A stretch of DNA of 64,000 bases from a bacterium (GTDB lineage Bacteria > Auribacterota > UBA3054 > JAPLST01). Positions 1,051 to 37,682 of this stretch are shown here, piece by piece. A program made the translations under genes and the position numbers. The notes beneath the pieces are model-generated. The model did not search any database. It saw only the letters and a list, made by a program, of their open reading frames with translations, and was not told where the DNA came from. The number at the start of each line of letters is the position of its first letter. Positions within the stretch are counted from its first letter, which is position 1. Location of the stretch: positions 48-64,047 of the forward strand of contig JAOACZ010000101.1 of NCBI GenBank assembly GCA_026417575.1, read 5' to 3'.

Positions 1051-1066
1051 GACCGCCTACTCCCAC

Positions 1067-3585: not shown

Positions 3586-3594
3586 GCCGCCCTC

Positions 3595-4620
3595 CTACGC
3601 GACATGTACACATGTCATATCAGCTAAAATAGCCCCAGGTACATTTGTCCCCTTCACCGCGATATCCACGTACATTAACCACCGCAACGTTCGCGCCAGC
3701 CGCTCGTCACGGATCTGTCGCAGTCGCTCCTCCACTGCACGATGCGCAGGATTACTGTAACTGAGCCGAAATTCTCCCCAGCGCTGGTACAACGTCCCTT
3801 CCCGTGCCGCCGCGCAGGCCGCGGGCAGCCGGCTCAGCGCGCTCGCAACAATGGTACATTCATAAACTGCATCCATGCCACCCGCACGCAACTCCTGGAG
3901 CGCAACTAACGCCTTCCCTACCTCTCCCCGCAGCAGCCGATCGGCAACCTCCCACTCGTTCCTCATCGCCGTGTCCACACACACCGCCATAACATCTTCT
4001 TCCTCCACCTGACCGCGCTCCCCCACATACATGCACACTTTCTCCACCTCTAATCCCAACGCCCGCGCGTCTCCACCACTCAGCTCCCGTAACAATGCCG
4101 CTGCCCCATTCGTCATGCGTTTCCCAAAGTGCACCCGCGCCGCCTCCACCGGGTCGCACCCCTCCTCCGGCGCACATTCCACCACTACCCCGCTTGCCCC
4201 CATCTGCCGCGCAAATCTCGTCCGTTTGTCCAGTTCACCGCACATGAGCACAACCACCACATCCTTGCGCGCCTGCTCAAGCAGTACCACCACATGCTCC
4301 CCTACCACCTCCAATTCCGACGCCGGAAGCGCGTCCGCGTGCTTCACCACCACAAGCCGCACCCCGCCCAGAAACGGTACCGTTTCCATCGCCGCTATAA
4401 TCTCTCCGCTCGTCACCCCCTCCCTTTCGGCGTCCAGTACTTCGTAGTTGAACTCCTCCGTCTCTGCCGTCAGTACAGCCTCCCGGAGTGCACGAACAAC
4501 CTGTTCTTGCCCCAGCGTGTTTTCTCCCGTCAACACATACACACTTAACACATTGCCACGCCGCACCTGTTCCACCACTGCGGCGGGCGTCAGGTGGCCT
4601 GATCCACGCGCCCTTTTCAT
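3595..4620 (-). CDS. holA: DNA polymerase III delta subunit
   Basis: 341-aa ORF with a typical HolA N-terminus (VYVLTGENTLGQEQVVRALREAV) and length. ATGA overlap with the gcvPB stop. Confidence 0.75.
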   Translation of the reverse strand: MKRARGSGHLTPAAVVEQVRRGNVLSVYVLTGENTLGQEQVVRALREAVLTAETEEFNYEVLDAEREGVTSGEIIAAMETVPFLGGVRLVVVKHADALPASELEVVGEHVVVLLEQARKDVVVVLMCGELDKRTRFARQMGASGVVVECAPEEGCDPVEAARVHFGKRMTNGAAALLRELSGGDARALGLEVEKVCMYVGERGQVEEEDVMAVCVDTAMRNEWEVADRLLRGEVGKALVALQELRAGGMDAVYECTIVASALSRLPAACAAAREGTLYQRWGEFRLSYSNPAHRAVEERLRQIRDERLARTLRWLMYVDIAVKGTNVPGAILADMTCVHVA

Positions 4621-6062
4621 GCCGTCAAGATCATTTCCCGTGCGGCCGCCGCCTCATCCAGTCGCCCAACAGGTGTCGTCACCGGGGCCGCGTGCAGCCG
4701 CGCAGGTTCTGTTTCCGCCAACTCCGCAATCTCCTCCATCGCCGCAATAAACGCATCCAGCGTCTCCTTGCTCTCCGTCTCCGTTGGCTCGATCATCAGC
4801 GCCTCATGCACGATCAACGGAAAATATACCGTCGGCGCATGAAACCCACGGTCCAATAGAGCCTTCGCAATGTCCAAGGCCCGCACGCCATGTCGCTCTT
4901 GCCGCCTCGCCGAAATCACACACTCATGCATGCACATCCGGTCATACGGCGTCTCGTATTTCTCTCGTAACTTCACCCGCACATAGTTCGCATTCAACAC
5001 CGCATGCGTACTCACCTCCCGCAATCCCTCTGCTCCTAACATCCGCAAATACGCGTACGCCCTGAGCAACACACCAAAATTTCCATAAAACGGCGCAATG
5101 TACCCAATACTCTGTGGCGCTTCATAGTCCAGCGCGTATGTCCCATCGTCCCGCTTGATCACTCGTGAAATAGGCAAAAATGGGCGCAACTTCTCCACTA
5201 CACCTACCGCCCCCGCCCCTGGCCCTCCCCCGCCATGCGGCGTCGCAAACGTCTTGTGCAAATTCAAATGCACCACGTCAAACCCCAAATCCCCTGGCCG
5301 CACCCGTCCCACAAATGCATTCATGTTCGCCCCGTCGCAGTACATCAGCCCGTCCACCTCATGTACCAACCTGCATATCGTTTGTACGTGCTTCTCAAAT
5401 AACCCCAGCGTGTTGGGCGCCGTCAGCATCACCCCCGCGACGTCATCGCTCAGCTCCTTCTCCAACGCCTTCAAATCCATGCACCCTTCCCCATCGCTCG
5501 GAATCGGCGTCACACCGTATCCCGCTATCGCCGCCGTCGCCGGATTCGTCCCGTGCGCGCTGTCCGGAATGAGAAACCTCTTCTTGTCATTTCCTCGCGC
5601 TGCATGATATGCCGCAATAATCATCGCTCCCGTCAGCTCCCCATTCGCCCCCGCCATCGGCTGCAACGTCATCTCTGCCATCCCTGTCACTTCCGCCAGC
5701 ATCCGCTCCAACTCGTACAGCACCTTCAACGCTCCCTGCGTCAACATCCCGCCATTTCGCAACTGCGGTAACAACGGATGCAACTTCGCAAATCCGTCCA
5801 GCCGCGCCACTTTCTCACACACCTTCGGGTTGTACTTCATCGTGCACGAACCCAGCGGATAATAGTTCGTGTCCACCGAAAAATTCAACCGCGATAAGTT
5901 CGTATAATGCCGAATGACATCCAATTCTGATACCTCCGGCAGCGCTGCCGGCTCCTTCCGCCGCAACCGTGCGGGTATGCGCGCCTTTGCTCGCGGCACC
6001 GAACATTCTGGCACCCGCACCCCCCGCCGCCCCGGCCGCGATTGCTCGTAAATCAACTTCAT
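4617..6062 (-). CDS. gcvPB: Glycine dehydrogenase (decarboxylating) subunit 2
   Basis: 481 aa. MKLIYEQS...LPEVSELDVIRHYTNLSRLNFSVD...HLNLHKTF.TPHGGGGPG (PLP-lysine region). Confidence 0.92.
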   Translation of the reverse strand: MKLIYEQSRPGRRGVRVPECSVPRAKARIPARLRRKEPAALPEVSELDVIRHYTNLSRLNFSVDTNYYPLGSCTMKYNPKVCEKVARLDGFAKLHPLLPQLRNGGMLTQGALKVLYELERMLAEVTGMAEMTLQPMAGANGELTGAMIIAAYHAARGNDKKRFLIPDSAHGTNPATAAIAGYGVTPIPSDGEGCMDLKALEKELSDDVAGVMLTAPNTLGLFEKHVQTICRLVHEVDGLMYCDGANMNAFVGRVRPGDLGFDVVHLNLHKTFATPHGGGGPGAGAVGVVEKLRPFLPISRVIKRDDGTYALDYEAPQSIGYIAPFYGNFGVLLRAYAYLRMLGAEGLREVSTHAVLNANYVRVKLREKYETPYDRMCMHECVISARRQERHGVRALDIAKALLDRGFHAPTVYFPLIVHEALMIEPTETESKETLDAFIAAMEEIAELAETEPARLHAAPVTTPVGRLDEAAAAREMILTA

Positions 6063-6122
6063 TTCTTTGCTCCTCTTCTGCGTAGTTCTTCTCGCCTACG
6101 CTCCCGCGGCTCCCCACCTCCC

Positions 6123-7463
6123 CTAAACCACCGCCTCCAGTGCCGCTGCCAGGCGATCTATCTCCTCCTTCGTCCGCATCTCTGTCACCGCCACTAACGC
6201 CACATTCTCCATCCCCGGATAATAGCGCCCAACCGGAAATCCCGCCGCAAACCCGCGATCAATCAAATCACCAATTACATCACGCGCATCCCGCGGTAAC
6301 GTAATACAAAACTCGTTGAAAAAAATTGCCTTGAACGTCCGCGTCACCCCAGGAATCGCTGTCAGACGCTCATGCGCATAGCTCGCATTGTCCGCACACA
6401 GCTCCGCTACCTCAATGAGCCCCTGCTTTCCCAATAACGCCAGATACACACCTGCCGCCAACGCACACAAATTCTGATTCGTACAAATGTTCGACGTCGC
6501 CTTCTCCCGTCGAATGTGCTGCTCACGCGCCTGCAACGTTAACACAAATCCCCGCCGCCCCTGCGCGTCCCGCGTCATCCCCACAATCCGCCCCGGCATC
6601 TTCCGCACCAAACTCTTTCGCGTCGCCATAAACCCTAAATACGGCCCGCCAAAGCTCAATGGAATCCCCAAACTCTGCCCCTCCCCCACGACAATATCCG
6701 CTCCCATCTCTCCAGGCGTCTTCACTATCGCGAGCGAAATCGGATACACACTCATAATCGCTAGCGCCCCCACCCCATGGGCTCGCTCAATGATCCCTGT
6801 GTAGTCTTCTATGCACCCAAAAAAATTCGGATTCTGAAGCACTATCGCCGCCACACGATCGTCCAGTGCCGCACTCATCGCCTCCTGGTCCAGCACGCCA
6901 TTCCGCGCCGGAATCTCCTCCTGCGCTATCCGCAACTTCGCACTATACGTGTGCAGCATCTTGCGATAAATCGGACTCACCGCCTGATCAATCAATACCC
7001 GCGACCGCCCCGTGCAACGCGCCGCCATTGTCATCGCTTCAAAAATCGCTGTCCCCCCGTCATACAGTGACGCATTCGCCACTTCCATCCCCGTCAACCG
7101 ACAAATACCCGTCTGAAATTCAAATGCCGCTTGCAACGTCCCCTGCGACACCTCCGGCTGATACGGCGTGTACGCCGTGTAAAACTCGCCACGCTGCAGG
7201 ATCGCGTCCACTGCCGCAGGCACATAATGATCGTAAAAACCTCCGCCTAAAAAACACACCAGATCCGTTCGATTCCGCCGCGCCAATGCCCGTAACATGC
7301 GCTCCACTTCGATCTCTGGCATCCCCTCGGGCAAGTTCAGTCGCTCGACCTGCACCTCGCGCGGAATCTCGCCAAAAAGCTCCTCGACACTCTCAATCCC
7401 AATCGCACGCAGCATCTCTGCGCGCTCCTCCTCAACGTGCGGTACGTACGTCGTGTGTCCCAT
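6123..7463 (-). CDS. gcvPA: Glycine dehydrogenase (decarboxylating) subunit 1
   Basis: 446 aa. YVPHVEEERAEMLRAIGIESVEELF...FLGGGFYDHYVPAAVD...YTPYQPEVSQGTLQA. Confidence 0.92.
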   Translation of the reverse strand: MGHTTYVPHVEEERAEMLRAIGIESVEELFGEIPREVQVERLNLPEGMPEIEVERMLRALARRNRTDLVCFLGGGFYDHYVPAAVDAILQRGEFYTAYTPYQPEVSQGTLQAAFEFQTGICRLTGMEVANASLYDGGTAIFEAMTMAARCTGRSRVLIDQAVSPIYRKMLHTYSAKLRIAQEEIPARNGVLDQEAMSAALDDRVAAIVLQNPNFFGCIEDYTGIIERAHGVGALAIMSVYPISLAIVKTPGEMGADIVVGEGQSLGIPLSFGGPYLGFMATRKSLVRKMPGRIVGMTRDAQGRRGFVLTLQAREQHIRREKATSNICTNQNLCALAAGVYLALLGKQGLIEVAELCADNASYAHERLTAIPGVTRTFKAIFFNEFCITLPRDARDVIGDLIDRGFAAGFPVGRYYPGMENVALVAVTEMRTKEEIDRLAAALEAVV

Positions 7464-7849
7464 TACTGCCGCTCCAGCAACGCGCGATACTCCGCAGCGC
7501 TTAATAATCGTGCCTTCTCTCCCTCATCCACTCCACTCAACACACACAACCACCCCCCTCCGTACGGATCTTTGTTGATCAGCTCTGGCGCATCCGCAAG
7601 TGCCGTGTTCACCTCCCCTACCGTCCCACTCACTGGCGCGTAGACGTCACTCGCAGCCTTCACTGATTCAATCACCATAAGTTCAGCCCCCTGCGTCACC
7701 TGCTTCCCCACCCCCGGCAAATCCACATACGTGATGTCCCCCAACTCATGCTGAGCATGATCCGTTATCCCCATGCGCGCTCGGCCTCCCCCCTCAAATC
7801 TTACCCATTCATGCTCCTTCGTGTACCACAACTCCTCTGGCACGTGCAT
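7463..7849 (-). CDS. gcvH: Glycine cleavage system H protein
   Basis: Internal ATG (M49 of the 176-aa track ORF) gives a 128-aa protein, MHVPEELWYTKEHEWVRFEGG...ESVKAASDVYAPVSG (lipoyl-lysine motif). GAGGGGAG RBS upstream. 1-nt TAATG overlap with gcvPA. Confidence 0.88.
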   Translation of the reverse strand: MHVPEELWYTKEHEWVRFEGGGRARMGITDHAQHELGDITYVDLPGVGKQVTQGAELMVIESVKAASDVYAPVSGTVGEVNTALADAPELINKDPYGGGWLCVLSGVDEGEKARLLSAAEYRALLERQ

Positions 7850-7890
7850 ATGCGCTCCCCTCGCTGGGTTACTTGTTGCAATTGCGTAAA

Positions 7891-7919
7891 ATTCTACCAT
7901 TCTTCTCATCGAAAAGCAA
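7891..7919 (-). promoter_or_regulatory. sigma70-type promoter candidate for the gcvH operon (TTGCTT-N17-TAGAAT)
   Basis: On the minus strand: TTGCTT (7919-7914), 17-nt spacer, TAGAAT (7896-7891), 41 nt before the gcvH ATG. Confidence 0.5.
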
Positions 7920-7958
7920 TTGCTTTCACACGTCGCCACGCTTATTCTCAACGAGTCT

Positions 7959-7987
7959 TTGACTTGCTCACGTAGCTCTGATACAAT
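7959..7987 (+). promoter_or_regulatory. sigma70-type promoter candidate for apbE (TTGACT-N17-TACAAT); predicted TSS falls on the GTG start
   Basis: TTGACT 7959-7964, 17-nt spacer, TACAAT 7982-7987, then 6 nt to GTG at 7994. No Shine-Dalgarno sequence. Confidence 0.5.
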
Positions 7988-7993
7988 TCTCAC

Positions 7994-9025
7994 GTGAAGC
8001 GTGCGCGCTTTCTACCCATCGTCGTGGCTTCTTTGCTGGTACTGGCCGCCTGCAGCCGGCAGCAAAAATTTACCGCGCAGCGCTTCCAAATGGCCACCCG
8101 TGTGGAAATTCAAATTCTTGCCTCACCCCGCGACGCCACCCGCGTTCACACTGCACTCCAGGACGCCTTCGCTGCCATCGACGCTGTTGAGCAACAGCTA
8201 AGTTGGTTCCGTACCAATAATGACCTCGCCCGCATCCGCCTCGCCCCCCCTGGTACCATTCTCTTCCTCACCAACTGGACCTGGCAAGCCTTGCTCCTCG
8301 CGCGCGACCTCTACAACAAAACCGCAGGACACTACGATGTTGCCGCCGGCCCCCTCATCCGTGCCTGGGGCTTCGGCCCCGGTAAGACAAATCGCATCCC
8401 TGATGAAGCCGAACTCGCTGCCGCCCGCGCTCGCAGCGGTATGGACAAGCTGATCCTCCTTCCCCACCTCTGCGCTGTCAGTACCTCTGTCGCCGGCGTT
8501 GATATCGATCTCAGCTCCCTCGCCGCCGGCTTCGCCGTTGACCGCGCGGCCGAACGCCTCCTCGCCCATGGATTCTCCAACTTCCTCGTCAACGGCGGAG
8601 GCGAAATCCGCGTCTCCTCTACCGGCGCCAAGCGCTGGCGCATCGGCATCCAAGTCCCCGATGAACACGCCCCCGACAACCTCTATCTGCGCGATCGCAT
8701 CCTCGCTCTTCGCCACGGTGCCGTCTCCACCTCCGGCAGCTATCGCAACTTCCACCGCGCCGGAACAAATGTCTTCATTCACCTCATCAACCCTCGCAGC
8801 GGCCGCCCACTGCACACCTCCACTGTCAGTGTCACCACCTGGGCCGACTCCTGCGCCCGCGCCGACGCTTGGTCAACTGCCCTCTTCTGTCTGCCCGTCT
8901 CTCAAGCCCTCGCCCTCGTCGAACTCGAGCCCCAGCTCGAATGCCTCATTCTTGAAGCACCCACTAACTCTCTCTCCGGCTACCGCTTCTCCTCCTCTTC
9001 GGGTTTCCGCCACCTCACCGAGTGA
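7994..9025 (+). CDS. apbE: FAD:protein FMN transferase (ApbE family) lipoprotein
   Basis: 343 aa. Lipobox LLVLAAC|S after a basic N-terminus. ApbE-like body (...GHYDVAAGPL...LVNGGGEIRV...AVSTSGSYRNF...). Confidence 0.8.
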   Translation: MKRARFLPIVVASLLVLAACSRQQKFTAQRFQMATRVEIQILASPRDATRVHTALQDAFAAIDAVEQQLSWFRTNNDLARIRLAPPGTILFLTNWTWQALLLARDLYNKTAGHYDVAAGPLIRAWGFGPGKTNRIPDEAELAAARARSGMDKLILLPHLCAVSTSVAGVDIDLSSLAAGFAVDRAAERLLAHGFSNFLVNGGGEIRVSSTGAKRWRIGIQVPDEHAPDNLYLRDRILALRHGAVSTSGSYRNFHRAGTNVFIHLINPRSGRPLHTSTVSVTTWADSCARADAWSTALFCLPVSQALALVELEPQLECLILEAPTNSLSGYRFSSSSGFRHLTE

Positions 9026-9281
9026 CCCCCCCTTTTTCCCTTCCAACACGTACTCTTGCGCAACTCACGCCCGAGCAGACTTGCACCACGCTGCGCTCAT
9101 AAGCCACCCTACCACCCCGCGCACGCACCCTTCAACTGTTCCACACAGATCGCCGCCACACTACGCGCTGCAATTTATCTTGATCCCCTGCGCTGTCAAT
9201 ACCCTAACATGCCGATACGACCGCGCGATCGGAATGCGTGTCTGAGGCTTTCACACCTCATCGCATGCCTAGAATATTGCT

Positions 9282-9310
9282 TTGGCAGCTCCCAGGGCTT
9301 TTGTTATAAT
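9282..9310 (+). promoter_or_regulatory. sigma70-type promoter candidate for tRNA-Ser (TTGGCA-N17-TATAAT)
   Basis: TTGGCA 9282-9287, TATAAT 9305-9310, 16 nt before the tRNA 5' end. Confidence 0.55.
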
Positions 9311-9326
9311 ACTAACCGCACAAGCC

Positions 9327-9416
9327 GGAGAGATGCCAGAGTGGTCGAATGGGCCGGTTTCGAAAACCGGTAGGCTCGCAAGGGTCTCCAGGGTTCGAAT
9401 CCCTGTCTCTCCGCCA
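9327..9416 (+). tRNA. tRNA-Ser (anticodon CGA), long variable arm, encoded CCA
   Basis: Hand-folded. Acceptor GGAGAGA/TCTCTCC, anticodon stem CCGGT/ACCGG with loop TTCGAAA, long extra arm, T-loop GGTTCGAATCC, 3' GCCA. Confidence 0.9.
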
Positions 9417-10074
9417 TGCTTCTCTCTTCCCGTCCGCGCACCTCACCGCGCCCGTTCCGATCATTCACCCAAGGAACCTTCACGACCTCACGACCCCTAC
9501 CAGACAACACCTTTAATGTACCGTGCCTTACCGCATGCGCACGCGTTGCGTGCCCGTGAAGCCGCTCTTGCTATCCAAAGCAACCACCCGGTCGGCGCGG
9601 ATTCTCATCATACTGGTGCGGAGTGCTTCCACACTCCCGCGCGCACGCCTTTGTCGTCACCCCCTCGTGCGGCACCACTTCCGCCGCGACGGCTGTATCG
9701 GTCCGTTCTGTACGAAACGCCTCCTCCCGCACTCCCCTCACGGGCCGGTCTGTTCCTTTTCGAGTGGATTTACGCAACGCTTCCTCTTTCCACTCGGCCA
9801 CCAGAACGTTTTCTCGAGCCTAAACCCACTGATTATCCTCGGGGGGCGGGAATAAAACTTCTACTTCGTCCCAAGAAGCACACCTCCGCCACACCCACCC
9901 GCTCGCATGTCAACCGTGGTCATCTCCGTAACATGGCGCCCTCTCGCCTACCCACATGAGCCCGCTCCGCCGGCCTCACATCGCCCTGATCAACCAACGC
10001 CACGATCCGCGCCGCCGCTGACGGCACTGTCGTCGCCACCTGGTGCAAAGCGCCCGCTCCCAATCCTGCGAGCC

Positions 10075-10103
10075 TTGACACGTAAATCAAAAGTGGCTAT
10101 CAT
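10075..10103 (+). promoter_or_regulatory. sigma70-type promoter candidate for the giant pseudopilin pair (TTGACA-N17-TATCAT)
   Basis: TTGACA 10075-10080, TATCAT 10098-10103, about 82-nt leader to the ATG at 10186. Confidence 0.5.
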
Positions 10104-10185: not shown

Positions 10186-13100
10186 ATGAGAACCGCCCTT
10201 CTCTCCCCCACGACGCGTACGCCGCGTGGTGTCGCCCTGGTGGCCGTCTTATCAGTCTTGACCGTTCTTGCCATCCTCGCCGCCGCATTCGCCGTCCTCA
10301 CACAACTCGATATTAATAACGCGAACGCACAGCTCGAGGCGCAGCGCCTCTCTCTGCTGATCGAGTCTGGCGTCAACCATGCAGTGGCCGTCATCCAGCA
10401 AGCCCAGGCACGTGGCGAAAAAATTTCGACCTCGCCAGACAGCAGTTTGCGGCGCGCCTTCGCTGCCTTTACCGCCGGATCGGAAACCCTGAACGCGCGT
10501 GGGGCACACGCCAAGCACACCGGAATATGGCACTACGTCAAAAACAGTCGAGGAATATTGGAAGGCCGCTACTCCGTCGCCGTGGAAGATGAAGCCGCCA
10601 AAATCAACCTCAATACTGCCTTCCTGCTTCGTCCCTCCCCTGGCTCTGGCTGGCTCCCCGGAGAACTTGCCCTGACTATGGCAAGCGGGCTCCCCACCCA
10701 ATTCATGCAACGGATCCTTGACTTCCGCTACGGCCCCAATCGCGTCCCCGGCGCCCGCGGTGATGACGACGCCAACAACGTTCTTCTTATGTCAGACGGG
10801 ATCGATAACAACGCCAACGGCCTTGTCGACGAAGATGACGAGGGCCTCGAAGATCCCGGTGAATACTCACCCTATTACCCTATGGGCGATGATCGGCGCA
10901 TCACCACTATTAGTGAAGCGCTTGGTGTTGTCTTGAGCGGGCCGATTCGCCTCACCTTGGAATCACGCCGCTTGATCCAGCGTGAGATCCCGCGCCGCAC
11001 AACTCTCTACTCGATCGACATGCCGGGCTCAGCCAGTCTCCCCGCTGACGATCCCGCTGATATTAATGTCGTCTCACCCCGTCAGGCACGCAAATTAATC
11101 GGTCAAGCTAACATGCGCCGCCCGTTCGGCGCAACCCAACGCGATCTGAATCAATTAGCTGTGAATGTGGTCGATTACCGTGACCAAAATCATGTCCTTT
11201 CCACCCATGCTTCCCTGTACGGCGTAGAAGCCATCAACTTTAACGAACTTCTCGCTAATGACGGCACCCAAGGTCGCACCATCCGGAGCGGCCTGTTCTG
11301 GACAGGTGCTGGCTCGCCCACCGTCAATGACGACGCCTTTCTCGTCTGTTCCTCCGAACTCACAGGCAACGGTCTCACCTACAACTCCACCACGCTCAAC
11401 GGCGCCTATTGCTGGGACTGTGAAGTCGTCGGCCCCAACGCCATCAAACTTTTGGGACCAGCAAAACGCCTCACAAGTAGTGGCATTGCCGATGCCTGGG
11501 ACTCCACGTTTATGTCCCGCTACCGGCATTACCTCACTATGCGTGACCGCGCCGGCCAATACCCCCGGCGCGTCGTCACCGGGAATGCCGGGCTCGGCCT
11601 CGAATCGTATGAAACTATCCAATGGCCGGAAAATCTTTTTGCCCATGGTTTCCTTATCATCGGCCACAGTGCTTCAAACAGCACCTCCTGCACGGATCAG
11701 CGCAAGCTCACTATCACCAGTAGCACGCCGGATGGCATCGTCCGCGTCCAGGGTACCCTCCCCACAATCCCTCCCGGGCGCGTTTCTCGTTGCCAGATTT
11801 ACACCTGGGAGACAGAAAACGGTTACTCGCGCTGCGCTATTCCGCGCGCGCGCATGATGGTTACTGTCCAAAATCTTCGCCCCCGCGTCTATTATTTGCC
11901 TGTTGCCAGCGGCTGGCCCAATCACCGCACTCCTGACCGCCTCGGCCAGTTACGCTTTGCTCCCTTACATCGCCTCGACAGCGACAGCCGTGAGCACCGC
12001 AATCACAAGTGGGAATACGCCGGCAACGACCGCGACGCCGAGCCCGTCCGCAGCTCGCGCGGCGGCATCATGGACCTTTTCGTCGCTGGCGGCAACGGCG
12101 TACGCTACAGTGCGGATGATTGGAGCCAATTCAGTACCTGCTGGAGCATTACCTACACACGTCCTGAAGCCATTGAGCTGATTAATGTCAGCGCCCGGCC
12201 CATCTCGATCCGAAATTGGACCTTGACTTTCAACACCGGTTCGATTGTCAACGATATCGGCGTCATTGACTATGGTCAAGGTTACTCGCTGAATCAAAGC
12301 GGCTTGCGCGATCCCAACCCCGTCATCATGCCCAATGGGTATTTCTACCTCGTGAACAATATCAAACTGTTCAATGCCGAGTTCGGGAGCGGCACGCCCA
12401 GTCTCAATTGGGGTGGCAACGCCAGTCAGTACAACCCCGTGTGGCAAATACCCAGCGACGCCTGGGGCGTGCAATATGCCATTGACCGTACCATCAGCCG
12501 CTCCCAAAACAATGTCGCCGTAGCGCGCACATACCTGCGCAACGCGCGATTCCGCCCAGGCCAATTTAAAGGCGAAGTGATCGAATTCATGCGCTTGGAA
12601 AATGGCCGGCAACGCATCCCCTGCACCGCGGATGGCTCTCGCTACGAAGTTCGCGACAATGGTCGTGATTGGATTGAGTTCGCTATGCGTGCGCCCTGGG
12701 ACGCTAATCACTTCAACCCACAATCGCGCATGTTCTGGCCCCCCGCCGATACACTCATGATCGTCGGTATGCCGGCCAAGGGTGGCATTGTCTCCATGAC
12801 CCTCAAGAACGAATACAAACAAGTGGTAGCCCGCACAGTAGAGTACGCCTACCTGGAACAAGAGCCTATCGCGTGGGTCGGCAGCAGTGCAGAGAAAACC
12901 GATCCAACTCAGTACAACTGGGTCGTGCGACGTACTCCCAGTATCAGCGGCCGCCCAGAGAAAGCTGAAAATGCCGCTTCCCGGGGCCGCCGCCGTCAAC
13001 CAGTCGAAATCAAAGACGGCCCTTACGTGAGCGTCGGGGAAGTCCGCCGCGTCCGCATGGGCAACGAATTTGCGAATGTAGGTGCAGGGCGCAGCGGAGT

Positions 13101-14274
13101 GCGTCAACGCGAAACGTTAGCCGCACTCGCCGACGCCTTCTATGCCTCTGCACTCCGCCTGGAAGCGTGCGATGAGCGCGCACAACGGACGGGCTGGCAA
13201 AGTGCTCAATACACTGTCTCCGCAACACGGCCTACCAGTATTACCGCCTCTGACGCCGCGTGGGAAGTGGACATGTGGCGAAATCACACCGTCCGCTTCA
13301 TGACAGGCCGCCTGCGCGGCGAAATGTTCCCGATCTTTGGCAACTCGCGCAACACCCTCCAAATAAGCGAGCCTGGAGAACGCGCACAAGTCCGCTCCTG
13401 TCCCGGCCGCAAGCCGTTAACCGCAGCCGTCGGTGACGTGTTTACAGTCGGCCCCGGCTACGCAAGCGGCTTGTGCTATGCGCGCCAACCCGGCCAGCAA
13501 GGTGAGTGGACATGGCTGCAACGCATCGGTGTACCTGGCCGTTATCATTTGTACATCTTCGGTCTCAGTGATTCGATTAGCACTACGGAATTCCTCGAGG
13601 AAAACGATAACGCGGCCCTCGACATCGAAGTGTGGAACTACGCGACGCACCAGTACGATTTGCTCGCACGTAACCAACGCTACGGAAAAGACGACAGCAT
13701 CTACGTCGGCCAGATTTCCCCCCATCACATCTCGCCTAAGGGCGATTTCAAACTCCGCTTGACTGCCCGTGATGTTGGTGAGCGTGGCCTGGAACGTGAG
13801 ACACGCCAGACTATCCAAGCGCAGCGCCGTCGTCAGAGTGGTTTTGCCTGGTTTAACTATGCGATGTTAACCCCCATCCCCGTTCCCGGCAGAGTTAACG
13901 TCAATACAGCCGGTCCGCGCCTTCTCGCAAGCCTACCAGGAGTCTCCCTGGCACTCGCACACAACATCTATCAAGGCGTAGACGCAGGCGGCCGCGCCCT
14001 TTTGAAACCGTACAAAACATTCGGCGATCTCCTCAAAGTCCGCGGTATGACGCCAGAAATTTTTGAGCGCATCGCCAACTTACTCTGCCTCGATAGCACC
14101 GCCTACACAATTGACATTTACGCACAGACGCTCAAAGATCGTAACAATGACGGCCTCTTCGACCAAGCAAAGGAACCTGTCCAGGGGGAACGACATCGGC
14201 GCTTCGTAATTCGCACAGATGTTGATCCACTCGCCGCGCGCAATGTCGAGATACTTGAGCAGTACACACCGTAG
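10186..14274 (+). CDS. Giant GspK/PulK-like minor pseudopilin, paralog 1 (1362 aa)
   Basis: Start chosen at M94 of the track ORF: MRTALLSPTTRTPRG|VALVAVLSVLTVLAILAAAFAVL (pseudopilin-type hydrophobic N-terminus, no Glu5). GspK-like VEDEAAKINLN and ILDFRYG...GARGDDD. C-terminal GRVNVNTAGPRLLASLPGV...LKVRGMTPEIFERIANL (helix-hairpin-helix). About 1000 residues lie between these parts. Confidence 0.7.
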   Translation: MRTALLSPTTRTPRGVALVAVLSVLTVLAILAAAFAVLTQLDINNANAQLEAQRLSLLIESGVNHAVAVIQQAQARGEKISTSPDSSLRRAFAAFTAGSETLNARGAHAKHTGIWHYVKNSRGILEGRYSVAVEDEAAKINLNTAFLLRPSPGSGWLPGELALTMASGLPTQFMQRILDFRYGPNRVPGARGDDDANNVLLMSDGIDNNANGLVDEDDEGLEDPGEYSPYYPMGDDRRITTISEALGVVLSGPIRLTLESRRLIQREIPRRTTLYSIDMPGSASLPADDPADINVVSPRQARKLIGQANMRRPFGATQRDLNQLAVNVVDYRDQNHVLSTHASLYGVEAINFNELLANDGTQGRTIRSGLFWTGAGSPTVNDDAFLVCSSELTGNGLTYNSTTLNGAYCWDCEVVGPNAIKLLGPAKRLTSSGIADAWDSTFMSRYRHYLTMRDRAGQYPRRVVTGNAGLGLESYETIQWPENLFAHGFLIIGHSASNSTSCTDQRKLTITSSTPDGIVRVQGTLPTIPPGRVSRCQIYTWETENGYSRCAIPRARMMVTVQNLRPRVYYLPVASGWPNHRTPDRLGQLRFAPLHRLDSDSREHRNHKWEYAGNDRDAEPVRSSRGGIMDLFVAGGNGVRYSADDWSQFSTCWSITYTRPEAIELINVSARPISIRNWTLTFNTGSIVNDIGVIDYGQGYSLNQSGLRDPNPVIMPNGYFYLVNNIKLFNAEFGSGTPSLNWGGNASQYNPVWQIPSDAWGVQYAIDRTISRSQNNVAVARTYLRNARFRPGQFKGEVIEFMRLENGRQRIPCTADGSRYEVRDNGRDWIEFAMRAPWDANHFNPQSRMFWPPADTLMIVGMPAKGGIVSMTLKNEYKQVVARTVEYAYLEQEPIAWVGSSAEKTDPTQYNWVVRRTPSISGRPEKAENAASRGRRRQPVEIKDGPYVSVGEVRRVRMGNEFANVGAGRSGVRQRETLAALADAFYASALRLEACDERAQRTGWQSAQYTVSATRPTSITASDAAWEVDMWRNHTVRFMTGRLRGEMFPIFGNSRNTLQISEPGERAQVRSCPGRKPLTAAVGDVFTVGPGYASGLCYARQPGQQGEWTWLQRIGVPGRYHLYIFGLSDSISTTEFLEENDNAALDIEVWNYATHQYDLLARNQRYGKDDSIYVGQISPHHISPKGDFKLRLTARDVGERGLERETRQTIQAQRRRQSGFAWFNYAMLTPIPVPGRVNVNTAGPRLLASLPGVSLALAHNIYQGVDAGGRALLKPYKTFGDLLKVRGMTPEIFERIANLLCLDSTAYTIDIYAQTLKDRNNDGLFDQAKEPVQGERHRRFVIRTDVDPLAARNVEILEQYTP

Positions 14275-17200
14275 TGCTACCAGGCCCCTCCCTCCCCAGC
14301 CCTGCTCCGCTCGTTACCGCGGCGTGGCTCTCATAGCTGTCTTGTCCGTTCTTACGATCATTGCTCTGCTCGCGGCCTGCTTTGCACTGCTAATTCAGTT
14401 AGATATGGCCAATGCCAACGCGCAGCTCGACGGGCAACGGCTTGCCATGTTGACCCGTTCCGCGGTCAACCATGCTCTCGCTCTTCTCCAATCCACGGAC
14501 GCCGCTGCGCACTTGGATAACCCACACTACTCGGCTTGGGTCATGGTCGCAAACAGTGCCGGGCGCATCGAAGGCCAATACCGCTTCGTGGTGGAAGACG
14601 AGGCAGGCAAACTACATCTAAACAGTGCGTTCCTCACCACACCGTCACGCGGAACGGGATGGAGTGTAGGAGAGCAAGACCTGGCCCATGCCCTCGGCCT
14701 CTCCCCGCCCCTTGCCGCGCGGTTACTTGAGTACCGCTACGGCCAGAATCATGTACCCGGCGCACGCGGGGACGACGACGCCAACAACATTCTCCTCATG
14801 TCTGACGGCATCGATAACAACGCCAATGGGGTGGTCGACGAAGACGACGAAGGCGTGGATGATCCCGGTGAATATTCTCCTACCTACCCTTGTGGCGACG
14901 ACCGCCGTCTGACTAGCATAGCCGAGGTATTGAGCTTGTTGCTCGGCGACACACAGCGCCTGCCTCTCCGCGTGCAGCGGGCTATTCAGCACGAAATACC
15001 TCGCCGCGCCACCGTATACGCTGTTGACCTGCCAGGCTCTGCCACCCTCCCGGACGAGGAACCTGCTGATCTCAACGCCGTCAGTGTGCGCCAGGCACGT
15101 CGCCTGCTCGGCCGCGCCCAAGCCCGTACTGCATTCACAGCCACACAGCGTGAGCTCGCTCAGCTTGCCGTCAACCTGGTGGATTACCGCGATCAGAACC
15201 ATGTCCTCTCCACTCTCGCTTCAACCTACGGCGTAGAAGCAGTTAGTTTCAACGAAGTTCTTGCCAACGACGGGACCGAGGGCCGATACACTTCCTCCGG
15301 CTTCTACCCGCATTATGGTGTCGGCTACTTCGCCCAACCAACCGACCGAGATTTTAGCGTCTCCACCGCGAGCTTGTTTTGGGAATTCGACGGGAATCGT
15401 GAACTCAGCGAACACGACATGAAAACCTTCACGTTCAATAAGGCCTACGACGCGTGGAACTACCTGAATGAGGGATGTTGGGATGTGATGATCAGGGCGG
15501 GCGGCCGGGAACTCCTCCTCCTTGGTCCCGCAAAGAATATGGATAATCACGGTGTAATCAGCGAGGCCTGGCTCGTCCTCGGACACGCTAATTTCCCCGG
15601 TGAACGTTGGCGGCGCTTCCAGCACTACGTCAAAATGCGCGCGGACCTCGCCGAATATGGCCCGCGCTTCCAGCTCGGCGACCCGGGCTTCATGCAAGGA
15701 CCGCAACGATATCAAACATTTGACTGGCCGCCGGACTTTTTCAAAAACTGCTACGTCTCTGTTGGCTTTACCCGCCCGTTCATCCGCCACGCCGACTCCC
15801 ACGCAAAAGTGCTCGCCACACCAACTTCCGTGAAAATTCTCGCTAGCTCACGTGACGGCGTCCTTCGCTTGGCCACCGCGATCCAACCGACGTCCGTGCC
15901 CAGCAACGTTTCACGCGCTGTCATTTGGGGCTGGCGCACAACCGCAGCCACGGAAACCTTGACCCCCGGCTTGCTCACGCGCTTTACCTTCCAAGGTCTG
16001 CAACCCCGCACCTACTACCTCCCAGTCATCAATGCCTGGTCAAGTGCGCGCGACTTTAAGCCGCGCCTCGGCTTCGCTCCCTTCCCCCAGGTCCTCCACG
16101 ATGATCGTGAACCGGTCGGTGACTCCCGCAAGTGGACCTACGGAGGCGAGGGTGATGAGAGCGTCTGTGTGCGCACTAGTCGAGGAGGCTGTGTTGACAT
16201 CTATTTGCGCAGCGGCTCAAACCTTCGCTCAAGTGGCTCGGCCATGAACAACGGTAACTACCTCATGGGAATCACCTTCGTCCGACCGGAAGTCCTTGAA
16301 CTGTTCAACGTCAGCTCACGCCCTATTTCCTTACGTGGTTGGACACTCACGTTCAATACCGGCTCCATCGCCAATGACATCGGCACAATCGAGTATAGCA
16401 TCGGATACGGGAGTGGCGGCAGAACGCGCTTCACCAACCCAGTAATTGGAAGCAACGGTTATTTTTACCTGGTGAACAACGAGAAGCTCTTCACGGCCGA
16501 GTTTGGTTCTCGTAGGCCCGGCCCATGGGGCACCACCGCTAGTCAGCGTATCCCCATCTGGCCCATCCCCAACGACGCATGGGGAGTGCAATACCGCGTC
16601 CGTAAAATCCTGACCAGTAGCAAAGTGCAGGACTTGGAGTGGAACAACAAAATACGCTTCTACCTCGAAAACGAACGCTTCACACGTGACAACCAGTTCA
16701 AAGGTGAAGTGTTCGAAGTCCAAAAAAACACGCCTGGCGGAGCACAAGAATCCCCCATCCACGGCTCGCGTTACATCGTGCATGCGAGCGGACGGGATTG
16801 GATTGAGTTCCGCGGCGAGCGCATTGGGTGGTTCCATGCTCTCTTCACTCCCCCCGCTGCCGGAGGCTCAGGCATTGATACCCTCATGCTGCTCGGCATG
16901 CCCGCAAAGGGCGGGGTCGTCTCCATGACCTTAAAAAATGAATACAAGCAGATCTCTGCTCGGACTGTCACCTACGCCTATCGCGAACTCGAGCCGCAAA
17001 AATGGTACGGACAAAGCGCCGAGAAAGTTGACCCAACCCAGTACGAATGGGTCGTGCGCGAAATTCCAACCATCGGCGGTACGCCACGCGCAGCGCAGAG
17101 TCACGCCGCGCGTGGCACTCAGACACTCGCCCCGATTAAAAACGGCCCCTATGTGAGTGTGGGTGAACTCCAGCGCGTCCGCAGTACCCGCCCCTTCGCC

Positions 17201-18403
17201 AACCTCGGCGCCGGCTCCCGCGAAAGCGCGCGCGACCACGCAACTCTGGCGGCCCTAGCGTCATCCTTCTGCACGTCGGCATTGCGGCTCGAAGCCACTG
17301 ATCCCCGCGCTGAACGGGCGGGCTGGCAGAGTACCGTGTATACCGTCGCTGGCGTGGCTCCCGGCACACTTACCGCTGCTGACGCCGCGTGGGAAGTTGA
17401 TCAGTGGAAAGGTCAGAGTGTGCGTTTCCTTTCTGGACGCTTACGCGGTGAAATCTTCCCAATCAGCGGCAACGGCCGCACAACTCTCCACGTAGGCGAT
17501 ACTCAGGGAGGTGCCTCGCCTCGCTCGACCCCCAATGGTTCTCTCTTCACCCCCGCTCCGGGCGACGTCATTTCCGTCGGCCCCGGTTATGCCACTGGCT
17601 TATGCTACGCGCGCCGTCCAGAACAACAAGGTGAGTGGATCTGGCGCCGCCGCATCCCCATTCCAGGCCGGTACCATCTCTATGTGTTCGGTCTCAACGA
17701 CTCAATTAGCACAACGGAGTTCTTGGAAGAAAACGATAACGCCGCTTTAGACGTTGAATTGTGGAACTACCGCACATCCTCCTACGACCTTATTTGCAGA
17801 AACCAGCGCTATGGAAAAGACGATGGGTTCTATGCAGGAGTGATGCACCCTGATCATGTCTCCCCGGAGGGGGACATTCGCCTTCGTTTGACAGCACGCG
17901 ACGTGCAACCGCGCGGTGTGCCGCGCGACACACCCCACGCAGTTCAGGCCCAGCGCCGTCGTCAAAGCGGGTTCGCGTGGTTTAATTACGCCCTCATCAC
18001 GCCCGTACCCGTCTTTGGGCGCGTGAACGTCAACACAGCAACCCAACCACTCTTACGTGCTCTGCCCGGTATTACACCTGCGCTTGCCCACAACATCTGG
18101 CGCGGTATCGACACTTCCGGTCGAGCGACGCTGAAACCCTACGCCGCTCTAGGTGACCTCCTCCGCGTTCGGGGTATGACTCCAGAGGTGTTCGAACGGT
18201 TCGCCAACCTTGCGTGCGTGAACAGCCGCACCTTCACTATCGCGGTCCATGCTCGCCTCCTCAAAGACTCCTCAGCAATCTCTCACGATAGCGTCGCACA
18301 CACTCCAGTCCTGGCAGAACAGCGCACACGTGTGGTCGTTCGCATGCCACCCTCCGGCGAATCCAGTGGTATCCCGGAGATCCTTGATCACCTGCCCCAG
18401 TGA
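14243..18403 (+). CDS. Giant GspK/PulK-like minor pseudopilin, paralog 2 (about 1386 aa)
   Basis: Alignable end to end with paralog 1. Shared blocks include RG|VALIAVLSVLTIIALLAACFALL, VEDEAGKLHLN, VDYRDQNHVLST, GMPAKGGVVSMTLKNEYKQ, GRYHLYVFGLNDSISTTEFLEENDNAALD, AQRRRQSGFAWFNYA, GRVNVNTA and LRVRGMTPEVFERFANL. Start uncertain: ATG 14243 overlaps paralog 1 by 32 nt. Confidence 0.7.
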   Translation: MSRYLSSTHRSATRPLPPQPCSARYRGVALIAVLSVLTIIALLAACFALLIQLDMANANAQLDGQRLAMLTRSAVNHALALLQSTDAAAHLDNPHYSAWVMVANSAGRIEGQYRFVVEDEAGKLHLNSAFLTTPSRGTGWSVGEQDLAHALGLSPPLAARLLEYRYGQNHVPGARGDDDANNILLMSDGIDNNANGVVDEDDEGVDDPGEYSPTYPCGDDRRLTSIAEVLSLLLGDTQRLPLRVQRAIQHEIPRRATVYAVDLPGSATLPDEEPADLNAVSVRQARRLLGRAQARTAFTATQRELAQLAVNLVDYRDQNHVLSTLASTYGVEAVSFNEVLANDGTEGRYTSSGFYPHYGVGYFAQPTDRDFSVSTASLFWEFDGNRELSEHDMKTFTFNKAYDAWNYLNEGCWDVMIRAGGRELLLLGPAKNMDNHGVISEAWLVLGHANFPGERWRRFQHYVKMRADLAEYGPRFQLGDPGFMQGPQRYQTFDWPPDFFKNCYVSVGFTRPFIRHADSHAKVLATPTSVKILASSRDGVLRLATAIQPTSVPSNVSRAVIWGWRTTAATETLTPGLLTRFTFQGLQPRTYYLPVINAWSSARDFKPRLGFAPFPQVLHDDREPVGDSRKWTYGGEGDESVCVRTSRGGCVDIYLRSGSNLRSSGSAMNNGNYLMGITFVRPEVLELFNVSSRPISLRGWTLTFNTGSIANDIGTIEYSIGYGSGGRTRFTNPVIGSNGYFYLVNNEKLFTAEFGSRRPGPWGTTASQRIPIWPIPNDAWGVQYRVRKILTSSKVQDLEWNNKIRFYLENERFTRDNQFKGEVFEVQKNTPGGAQESPIHGSRYIVHASGRDWIEFRGERIGWFHALFTPPAAGGSGIDTLMLLGMPAKGGVVSMTLKNEYKQISARTVTYAYRELEPQKWYGQSAEKVDPTQYEWVVREIPTIGGTPRAAQSHAARGTQTLAPIKNGPYVSVGELQRVRSTRPFANLGAGSRESARDHATLAALASSFCTSALRLEATDPRAERAGWQSTVYTVAGVAPGTLTAADAAWEVDQWKGQSVRFLSGRLRGEIFPISGNGRTTLHVGDTQGGASPRSTPNGSLFTPAPGDVISVGPGYATGLCYARRPEQQGEWIWRRRIPIPGRYHLYVFGLNDSISTTEFLEENDNAALDVELWNYRTSSYDLICRNQRYGKDDGFYAGVMHPDHVSPEGDIRLRLTARDVQPRGVPRDTPHAVQAQRRRQSGFAWFNYALITPVPVFGRVNVNTATQPLLRALPGITPALAHNIWRGIDTSGRATLKPYAALGDLLRVRGMTPEVFERFANLACVNSRTFTIAVHARLLKDSSAISHDSVAHTPVLAEQRTRVVVRMPPSGESSGIPEILDHLPQ

Positions 18404-18675
18404 CTACCCATATTGCGCAGGCACGAGCTTTCCGCCCGTCTCACGCGCGCGCTCAAGGCGGCCTCACATATTTCCCAACGGCCCTGTGATAGTCGCCTAG
18501 TTCTCTCGAACCTGCACCATGCTGCAGACGTGGCGAGCGCGAATTTGTGCCTGCCGCTCACGCTCGATTACGCCGCCCATCGATCGCGCTGGCTTCACCT
18601 GCCCTCGCACAGATGCACGCGCGCCTCGTTTAGCAGGCCCAAGGCTTTCATCACTCACTCAAAAAACGTTCCTGC

Positions 18676-18704
18676 GTGACATTCCATACCAAATCTGCTA
18701 TACT
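18676..18704 (+). promoter_or_regulatory. sigma70-type promoter candidate (GTGACA-N17-TATACT) for the HAD hydrolase gene
   Basis: GTGACA 18676-18681, TATACT 18699-18704. GGAGGAG RBS at 18731-18737. Confidence 0.45.
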
Positions 18705-18740
18705 AACGCTGAAGTGCTTAAAGTTCCCGTGGAGGAGCCC

Positions 18741-19466
18741 ATGGTTGAATTGCGTGCAGTGCTGTTTGATCTTGATGGTGTGCTGGTAGATTCTCACCGC
18801 CTACATTATTTGAGTTGGCAGGAGTTAGCCGACGACCTCGGCTTGCGCTTTGATGAGCGCATGGGCGACCGGTTCCGCGGGATGGAGCGTGAGGAATGTG
18901 TGCGTGTCCTTTACGAGGAATTTAATAATCGGCCCGCTCCGTCACGCCAAGCAGTGCACGAACTCACCGAGCGCAAGAATCGTATCTATCAGGCAATGCT
19001 GGCAAAAGCCGGGCCAGAGGAGTTAGTCCTGCCGGGCGCGCGCGAATTGCTCGATACCTTGCGCAAAGCTCATGTCACCATCGTGGTCGCCTCAGGCAGC
19101 AAAAACGCCAAAATGGTCCTCAAACGCGCTGGGATGTGCGATCACGTGGATATCGTCGTAGATCGTTATGATGTCACGCACACTAAGCCAGACCCAGCCA
19201 TCTTTCGCGTGGCACTCGAACGCGCGCGCACTACCGCGGCTCACGCCGTGGGCGTAGAGGATGCTACCCTTGGAGTACAAGCTCTTCACGCCGCCGGCAT
19301 CAAAGCCGTAGGTATTGGACACTATGTCGAAGGAGCAGACCTACACCGCCCGACTATCGCAGATCTAACCTTGGAAGACTTGCGGGGCCTCGTCAATCAT
19401 TCCCCGCGTTGTGTCGGTAGCCACGCCCCCTCCCACGGCAAAAGCGGCTCTTCAACCGCATCGTAA
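18741..19466 (+). CDS. HAD-IA family hydrolase, beta-phosphoglucomutase-like
   Basis: Start at an internal ATG with a GGAGGAG RBS. MVELRAVLFDLDGVLVDS (DxDG motif), ...VASGSKNA..., ...GVEDATLGVQALHAAGIKAVGIG. 241 aa. Confidence 0.75.
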   Translation: MVELRAVLFDLDGVLVDSHRLHYLSWQELADDLGLRFDERMGDRFRGMEREECVRVLYEEFNNRPAPSRQAVHELTERKNRIYQAMLAKAGPEELVLPGARELLDTLRKAHVTIVVASGSKNAKMVLKRAGMCDHVDIVVDRYDVTHTKPDPAIFRVALERARTTAAHAVGVEDATLGVQALHAAGIKAVGIGHYVEGADLHRPTIADLTLEDLRGLVNHSPRCVGSHAPSHGKSGSSTAS

Positions 19467-37672: not shown

Positions 37673-37682
37673 GGAGTACACC

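Follow-up and report, generated by a model that had tools for sequence, protein, structure and literature searches.

Giant GspK/PilK-like proteins encoded by an orphan tandem gene pair in an uncultured bacterial lineage: candidate modular minor pilins

The gene pair and the domains of its products

The window considered here is a 64,000 nucleotide (nt) stretch of contig JAOACZ010000101.1 (assembly GCA_026417575.1) from a bacterium of the Auribacterota; it carries two adjacent genes, A and B, whose very large products are considered to be real but divergent homologues of the minor pilins GspK and PilK. Gene A (10186..14274, + strand) encodes a 1362 amino acid (aa) protein predicted to be a giant GspK/PilK-like modular minor pilin; gene B (14243..18403, + strand) encodes its 1386 aa paralogue, or one of 1394 aa if the alternative start at ATG 14219 is used. 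The original prediction described two co-oriented open reading frames (ORFs) that align end to end, with an overlap of 32 nt if ATG 14243 is the start of the second; the proteins are indeed 51% identical over their full length by BLASTP, and gene B overlaps the 3' end of gene A by 32 nt from ATG 14243 or by 56 nt from ATG 14219. At the DNA level the genes are 71-80% identical in register, at an offset of 4009-4129 nt. Because of this divergence in both protein and DNA, the pair is considered to be an old tandem duplication; a recent duplication and an assembly artefact, the latter a check named by the original prediction, are ruled out. The overlap of the reading frames makes co-transcription of A and B probable.

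In public records the gene call for B is P0010 (1332 aa), which begins approximately 54 codons downstream, at MANANAQ... (window 14243-14405), a choice of start that drops the conserved leader and transmembrane helix of the protein. Since the alignment with homologues retains both of these features, the true start of B is considered to be ATG 14243 or 14219 and the public call to be mis-started. Genes of this family are labelled in databases as 'hypothetical' or 'helix-hairpin-helix domain-containing'.

Residues 1-145 of A (10186..10620, +) form the N-terminal half of the predicted pilin module and comprise a leader (MRTALLSPTTRTPRG|), the hydrophobic α1 helix, and the first β-strands; the block closes with VEDEAAKINLN, the counterpart of which in B is VEDEAGKLHLN. 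The leader of B reads ...CSARYRG|VALIAVLSVLTIIALL, and the cleavage regions are RG|VALVAVLSVLTVLAILAAAFAVL in A and RG|VALIAVLSVLTIIALLAACFALL in B. The N-terminus of both proteins has a basic leader, Gly at -1, a hydrophobic helix of approximately 25 residues, and Ala rather than Glu at +5, which agrees with the earlier statement that Glu5 is lacking as in GspK. In an alignment of 34 family sequences, used throughout for conservation and domain counts, the Gly at -1 (G15) is nearly invariant, being found in at least 90% of members, and G15, A17, L18, L22, and L25 are all invariant or nearly so. The Pfam N_methyl motif (IPR012902/PF07963) gives no match at E≤1 in A or B; this is expected, as K-class pilins have neither Phe1 nor Glu5.

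Residues 146-360 of A (10621..11265, +) make up a conserved helical and acidic block, delimited by the conservation profile and by alignment with K-position proteins of pilus operons; it contains the motifs RYG.N.VPGARGDDD, DGIDNNANG.VDEDDEG..DP.EY, VDYRDQNHVLST, and YGVEAINFNE. The block is probably calcium-binding, a DxDxDG-like pattern being the one feature that points to this. Residues 361-660 (11266..12165, +) form a hypervariable β-rich segment, which corresponds to 338 aa of B (15275..16288, +). This is followed by a conserved β-sandwich block at residues 661-1235 (12166..13890, +), containing lamin-tail-like (approximately 658-780) and jelly-roll-like (approximately 990-1225) domains; the Pfam LTD match is weak in A and B and occurs in 17 of the 34 family members. 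A helix-hairpin-helix (HHH) with the sequence GRVNVNTA...LPG...VRGMTPEIFERIANL occupies residues 1236-1300 of A (13891..14085, +; Pfam HHH_3, 48 bits against a cut-off of 27) and residues 1260-1321 of B (18020..18205, +; 50.7 bits), in keeping with the predicted C-terminal HHH tail. The remaining residues 1301-1362 of A (14086..14271, +) are C-terminal β-strands predicted to complete the pilin sheet in cis. Each motif quoted in the original prediction, namely the pseudopilin start, EDEA, GARGDDD, and the HHH tail, is present in both proteins, as are the fuller patterns RG|VAL(V/I)AVLSVLT and GRVNVNTA...LPG...VRGMTPE.

The N- and C-terminal pilin parts are separated by approximately 1,150 residues, so the large extra stretch previously noticed between the GspK-like ends is confirmed. 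One polypeptide holds a pilin module together with additional non-pilin domains (HHH_3, LTD-like, and further β domains), which is the arrangement of a modular pilin; no Pfam family of the PilY1/PilC C-terminal β-propeller type is found in A, B, or the 34 members. Separately, a motif of approximately 50 residues, W..D.W.G.T.RF.TG.LRGE.FPI.GN...L, lies at A residues ~1005-1060 (window ~13198-13365) and matches dozens of unrelated large proteins (up to 6,784 aa; E ~1e-10 to 1e-4), each of which has 2-8 repeats of it. The motif looks like a so far undescribed repeat or domain that other giant surface proteins also carry.

Profile searches give significant N-terminal matches to GspK that remain well under curated thresholds. 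The NCBIfam model T2SS_GspK (NF037980) matches residues 14-144 of A with E 1.8e-11 and 44.1 bits, and B with E 4e-10 and 39.7 bits, both short of the cut-off of 130, and the matches extend over no more than model positions 2-105 or 2-157 of 307. The same model matches all 34 family members at the N-terminus, with a best E of 1.4e-16 and all scores far under the cut-off. Pfam T2SSK (PF03934) reaches 16.9 bits in B (cut-off 24.2), does not match A, and gives sub-threshold matches in 7 of the 34; HHH_3 exceeds its Pfam cut-off in every one of them. TIGR02600 scores 25.4 bits in A and 13.4 bits in B against a cut-off of 332, over model positions 1-63 of ~1,296, and half of the family members match these first 63 positions weakly. 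Searches of PDB sequences with both family profiles return HHH/ComEA matches and weak XcpX/GspK matches only. The earlier assignment to the T2SSK family is therefore upheld in part, by the N-terminal NCBIfam matches but not by Pfam T2SSK, which is sub-threshold and in B only; the broader GspK-like identity is supported by these N-terminal matches, by HHH_3, and by homology to K-position proteins, while the curated GspK thresholds are missed.

Shorter relatives, structure models, and the giant family

Shorter relatives of A and B occur in the Omnitrophota (~930-1,040 aa) and in the Aerophobetes and Ratteibacteria (~650-700 aa), and several are encoded directly 3' of prepilin-motif genes. In complete operons the K position is taken by relatives of 695-1,028 aa, with PilT, GspE (MshEN), and GspF followed by G/H/I/J-type prepilins and then K. 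In locus L051 the order is PilT, GspE (MshEN), GspF, three prepilins, and a 695 aa K-like protein carrying HHH_3, T2SSK, T2SSK_1st, and LTD; in L039 it is GspF, two prepilins, and a 932 aa K-like protein; in L056 and L057 it is GspE, PilT, GspE, GspF, a sigma-54 two-component pair, G, G, H, I, J-type, and a K-like protein of 1,008 or 1,028 aa. The type IV filament operon of L057 also contains a gene of the bAvd/23S_rRNA_IVP family, the accessory variability determinant family of diversity-generating retroelements. It is located at 6455-6808, after the histidine kinase gene and before that of the first G-type pseudopilin, and hints at diversification of this type near LTD-bearing K pilins.

The relationship of these proteins to the giant family is extensive. 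One family of ~1,036 aa proteins from the Omnitrophota (A4) bears the automatic names GspK/PulK or 'lamin tail domain-containing'; hhalign aligns the giant family with it at a probability of 100 and E 5.6e-97 over 967 columns (residues 6-1331 versus 6-1044). The operon protein P0304 aligns with giant-family residues 7-357 (hhalign E 1.2e-48), with all hallmark motifs common to both. Through A4 and P0304, the giant proteins are thus homologous to proteins at the K position of operons that encode GspE/PilB, GspF/PilC, and G-J prepilins. The architecture has precedents: LTD-bearing relatives of ~1,000 aa from the Omnitrophota and other metagenome-assembled genomes (MAGs) are already auto-annotated as GspK/PulK, and TIGR02600 proteins of ~1,300 aa are also GspK-headed.

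Structure predictions are available for part of A and for a full-length relative. The AlphaFold model of A residues 163-1362, built from a 14-sequence alignment, is confident and nearly all β at ~352-882 and ~992-1342, and unconfident at 163-348 and 883-965; segment 361-660 is modeled as β structure with a predicted local distance difference test (pLDDT) score of ~80-92, and the HHH is accompanied by three C-terminal strands at model residues 1144-1154, 1170-1182, and 1192-1198. Foldseek searches with this model give lamin Ig-fold matches (probability 0.54-0.75) and no GspK match, the model being without the first 162 residues; its matches in PDB and BFVD are otherwise only generic multi-β-sandwich and phage tail proteins with template modeling (TM) scores below 0.15, and were not used for function. 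The stretch at 883-965 (window ~12832-13080), which has a pLDDT below 50, is highly conserved (SAEK.DPT.Y.W..R..PSIGG......IKNGP..SVGE...V); its folding may require the N-terminal part absent from the model, or a partner protein.

The full-length relative P0239 (1,041 aa) is modeled with a pLDDT of 89 and a predicted TM score of 0.84, and features a 65-residue N-terminal helix, an N-terminal β-hairpin, a long β-rich insert, an HHH, and a C-terminal hairpin at 1014-1040. Foldseek matches this model with probability 1.0 to GspK of enterotoxigenic Escherichia coli (ETEC; 3ci0_K, TM 0.42 on the target), to the carbohydrate-binding module (CBM) CBM6 2cdp (TM 0.63-0.69, root-mean-square deviation 3.2 Å), and to the lamin Ig-fold (1ifr/3gef). 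On the basis of the homology with A4 (the alignment given above), we infer that A and B share the plan of P0239 and carry ~330 further residues; C-terminal strands are predicted in both the partial model of A and the full model of P0239, while the N-terminal strands lie outside the model of A.

The database search with A recovers 113 clusters (90% identity), nearly all of 1,300-1,500 aa. Conservation spans the whole length of the family alignment, in which over 100 columns are invariant; residues 1-360 and 661-1362 are highly conserved, and residues 361-660 are hypervariable and rich in indels. In the latter segment A and B are 26% identical, compared with 53-67% in the neighboring blocks; the family mean is 17%, most indels are located there, and the same pattern of variability is seen across four paralogues of one genome. 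The protein body at 661-1235 is considered to be family-specific, because its profile, searched against 1.84 billion representatives, finds 44 proteins at E≤1e-30 and all of them are family members or fragments.

Full-length members in GTDB species representatives come from MAGs of anaerobic digesters, rumen, lakes, and Guaymas sediments. NusA encoded in the window has relatives at 50-81% identity only among the set of family-bearing MAGs, including a 4.04-Mb contig with four paralogues; the next relatives are from the Omnitrophota and Aureabacteria, at lower identity and with partial alignment of the query. The giant family is, as judged from these searches, confined to one deep uncultured lineage near the Omnitrophota, and a survey paper on the Omnitrophota makes no mention of these proteins.

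Genomic context of the giant genes

In contrast to their shorter relatives, these genes are orphans. Within the window, A and B are flanked by tRNA-Ser(CGA) (9327-9416) and a HAD hydrolase gene (18519-19466), as originally described, and their neighbors include ApbE, gcv genes, and ThiF. The claim that pilus or secretion machinery is not nearby holds for the window: Pfam scans of 40 other ORFs find only housekeeping and polysaccharide-synthesis genes and no component of the type II secretion system (T2SS) or type IV pilus, tblastn of the window with GspE, PilT, GspF, and pseudopilin queries gives no match, and no gsp/T2SS operon with gspG-J lies beside A and B. The giant-family loci, approximately 400 kb in total, contain no prepilin-motif gene and no GspE/F homologue; likewise, no pilus genes are found beside other paralogues in four long-contig contexts, 49 GTDB loci, and the divergent paralogue locus L031.

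Copy number is high in several genomes. The circular-looking 4.04-Mb contig (ctg35858 of ERZ28669879) carries four paralogues (P0049, P0059, P0072, and P0081), and one MAG has five genes at no fewer than four loci; tandem arrays comprise three genes in L013 (109-12570), two in L018 (9965-13966 and 14116-18057), and the two in the window. The first 42 residues of the two L018 genes are identical, a sign of gene conversion or of a recent duplication. On the 4.04-Mb contig the surroundings of three paralogues were looked up, and all three have unrelated neighbors (PEP-CTERM-type secreted proteins, an AraC regulator, an M48 peptidase, and DnaB/GmrSD). In L001 (74-9473 and 14260-24182), the paralogue P0049 sits among large secreted proteins that end in a PEP-CTERM-like sorting signal (...PEPGIIGLLSLLGLAILRRK), which suggests an exosortase system in that genome. 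A DDE_3 transposase lies directly 5' of P0009 in several independent metagenome contigs (L002, 62-1144; L003, 1864-2946) and is a possible route for the dispersal of orphan giant genes.

A candidate sigma-70-like promoter, TTGACA-17-TATCAT (11/12 match; 10075..10103, +), is located 83 nt 5' of the start codon of gene A; it is a candidate only, as the total of promoter-like sites in the A/B region is no greater than in shuffled sequence. An integrated island at tRNA-Ser was considered and ruled out, since there is no att-like direct repeat around the pair and a GC shift is absent. Elsewhere in the window, the GC skew is -0.30 to -0.37 over positions 1-10000, where most genes are on the minus strand, compared with approximately -0.1 in the remainder. 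A 1223 aa ORF at 37470-41141 (+) has a CarboxypepD_reg domain as its sole Pfam match, and a 1555 aa CarboxypepD_reg protein (L055, 4872-9539) is encoded next to the giant paralogue P0072 in divergent orientation; such proteins may be recurring companions of giant K-pilin genes, or this may be coincidence.

Proposed function, alternatives, and significance

K-class pilins cap the fibre, and a C-terminal strand, provided in cis or by a separate PilY1 adhesin, licenses initiation; the N-terminal signature noted for the class, Gly at -1 and no Glu at +5, is like that of A and B (PMC13533445). Large insertions combined with a C-terminal strand donated in cis are known from the PilK/GspK homologues CpaL, ComZ, and that of the Vibrio cholerae competence pilus (PMC13533445), with the large cis insertions of CpaL and ComZ described also in PMC11870444; modular pilins act as tip adhesins (PMC8179133, PMC11870444), the largest surveyed being 860 aa (PMC8179133). 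A and B are considered, with somewhat more confidence than doubt, to be PilK/GspK-class tip minor pilins; they would display interchangeable modules for adhesion on a type IV filament whose genes lie elsewhere. An 'undescribed fibre', as originally suggested, is not needed, as the relatives sit in ordinary GspE/F/G-J operons.

One of the closest known counterparts is T2SS GspK/XcpX (PDB 3CI0 chain K and 5VTM chain X; NF037980; Pfam T2SSK). Like it, A and B have a prepilin-type N-terminus that lacks Glu5 and the strand motif (E)DE..K.N.N, and they are predicted to have an HHH-containing insertion in the pilin sheet and C-terminal strands in cis; the N-terminal similarity by hidden Markov model is significant, and the match in fold is to the full-length relative P0239. 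A and B differ in being 4-5 times larger, in scoring under the curated cut-offs, in lying outside a gsp operon, and in being multi-copy with a hypervariable segment. In the proposed derivation, the in-sheet insertion of GspK (~180 residues, the α-domain) would have grown to ~1,150 residues, mostly β-sandwich, arranged as the acidic helical block, the hypervariable β domain, the lamin-tail domain, a CBM-like jelly roll, and the ancestral HHH.

Building on the homology, domain layout, copy number, variability, and orphan context described above, the processing, tip location, and ligand may be proposed as follows. A class-III-type N-terminus would place the protein in the inner membrane, where a prepilin peptidase would cut it behind the conserved Gly (RG|V). 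It would then serve as the first, apical subunit, a position suggested by the lack of Glu5; its own C-terminal strands would finish the pilin sheet in cis, and I/J-type minor pilins followed by the major pilin of the machine encoded elsewhere would assemble beneath it. The giant module would in this way be displayed at the filament tip, where a role as an adhesin is plausible, and would bind a ligand outside the cell, for which a glycan or a polymer of cell surfaces is the likeliest candidate; the nature of the ligand, suggested by the CBM6-like and LTD modules of P0239, is the weakest link of the proposal. Dispersed and tandem paralogues, differing chiefly in the 300-residue segment, would give one machine alternative tip specificities.

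Several points weigh against this proposal. Every curated GspK threshold is missed by A and B; the evidence for GspK and CBM6 folds is transferred from P0239, whose identity to the window protein is ~25% in the profile alignment and 31-34% over the best tblastn segment; and A is modeled only from residue 163, with a mean pLDDT of 67 and non-specific multi-β-sandwich matches in Foldseek. In addition, neither the 64-kb window nor the ~400 kb flanking family members encodes a prepilin peptidase, an assembly ATPase, a platform component, a secretin, or a further pilin. The lack of pilus genes nearby, the consistently orphan, housekeeping surroundings, the several copies per genome, and the weak conservation of the ends of the pilin module, which are the least conserved parts of the protein (mean identities of 30% for residues 46-145 and 25% for 1301-1362), would suit a GspK-derived envelope protein outside any filament, in which the N-terminus is an uncleaved signal-anchor or Sec-type signal and the large β-sandwich ectodomain has a structural, adhesive, or polymer-binding role in the periplasm or cell envelope. 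This is considered unlikely: the Gly at -1 and the α1 helix are invariant or nearly so across the family, the C-terminal strands are kept in every full-length member, weak conservation of the globular pilin part is normal, and close homologues at the operon K position show that the scaffold is a working pilin.

An improbable alternative is a tip-located DNA receptor for natural competence, a role proposed for ComZ in Thermus, in which the ComEA-type HHH_3 and possibly the lamin-tail domain would bind extracellular DNA; HHH_3 is above the Pfam cut-off in all members, and the best PDB sequence matches are ComEA and related proteins. However, the HHH pair is an ancestral structural part of the α-domain of GspK, which has no DNA role in T2SS, and PDB XcpX and Pfam T2SSK match the same HHH residues; a DNA receptor would also leave the hypervariable segment, the CBM-like modules, and the many paralogues unexplained. 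It is very improbable that the unannotated region hides an enzyme, secreted or borne at the tip (for instance a lyase or hydrolase acting on polysaccharides), as the weak Foldseek matches to xanthan lyase 6f2p (E 5.7e-4 for the model of A, 5.2e-5 for P0239) and CBM-bearing glycosidases have TM-scores of 0.08-0.11 and are explained by accessory β-sandwich/CBM domains, and no catalytic Pfam or NCBIfam family is detected in A, B, or the 34 members.

Also among the closest known proteins are the LTD-containing 'GspK/PulK' proteins of the Omnitrophota and other candidate phyla (~930-1,050 aa; for example P0239, P0249, P0261, P0304, P0308), which are uncharacterized and known from automatic annotation only. 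These have the same order of pilin N-terminus, acidic DGIDN.DG block, β domains with lamin-tail, jelly roll, HHH, and C-terminal hairpin; they are ~330 residues shorter, and many are encoded directly after G/H/I/J genes in GspE/F operons, whereas the giant family is orphan, multi-copy, and limited to one lineage. Modular and K-class pilins with cis insertions (Streptococcus sanguinis PilB with vWA and PilC with a lectin, Caulobacter CpaL/TadG, Thermus ComZ, and ETEC CofB; PMC8179133, PMC11870444, PMC13533445) are alike in concept, with binding modules grafted onto a pilin module at the tip and, in CpaL and ComZ, an insertion between the pilin sheet and the C-terminal donor strand. The grafted modules have no sequence relationship, being LTD/CBM-like in A and B and vWA, lectin, or β-solenoid in the others, and A and B are approximately twice the size of the largest modular pilin of the 2021 survey (PMC8179133).

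Verru_Chthon cassette protein A (TIGR02600) is also giant and has a GspK-like N-terminus; the similarity is limited to the N-terminal helix, and the TIGR02600 family occurs in a four-gene cassette with prepilin-type proteins while A and B do not. A literature search for 'Verru_Chthon cassette' returned no papers. PilY1/PilC of type IVa pili resembles A and B in its size (~1,000-1,200 aa) and as a proposed tip adhesin that licenses initiation through a C-terminal β-strand; it is a non-pilin with a C-terminal β-propeller that provides its strand to PilK in trans, whereas A and B would combine the adhesin and the K pilin in one polypeptide.

Tip complexes determine the binding targets of type IV pili and whether pili assemble, and the A/B family would represent an extreme natural cis fusion of a K pilin with a PilY1-sized adhesin. 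GspK/PilK tip pilins, modular pilins, auto-named LTD-bearing 'GspK' proteins, and the GspK-headed giant family TIGR02600 are already known; what is new is a distinct lineage-restricted family of approximately twice the size of characterized modular pilins, with genes that are uncoupled from pilus operons and multi-copy with a localized hypervariable domain. A tentative extension, put forward with more doubt than confidence, is that the giant K-pilin genes form a repertoire of interchangeable tips, one machine being primed by whichever paralogue is expressed and the hypervariable 300-residue domain, together with the CBM/LTD modules, determining which cell surface or polymer is bound. By an equally speculative analogy with phage tail-fibre cassettes, the repertoire could be a form of receptor-binding diversification for attaching to varied partners or prey, and the host lineage may be epibiotic or predatory. 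If such a repertoire exists, it would provide a natural test of the size of cargo that an initiation complex can bear, as well as a way to approach how a deep, uncultured lineage recognizes surfaces.

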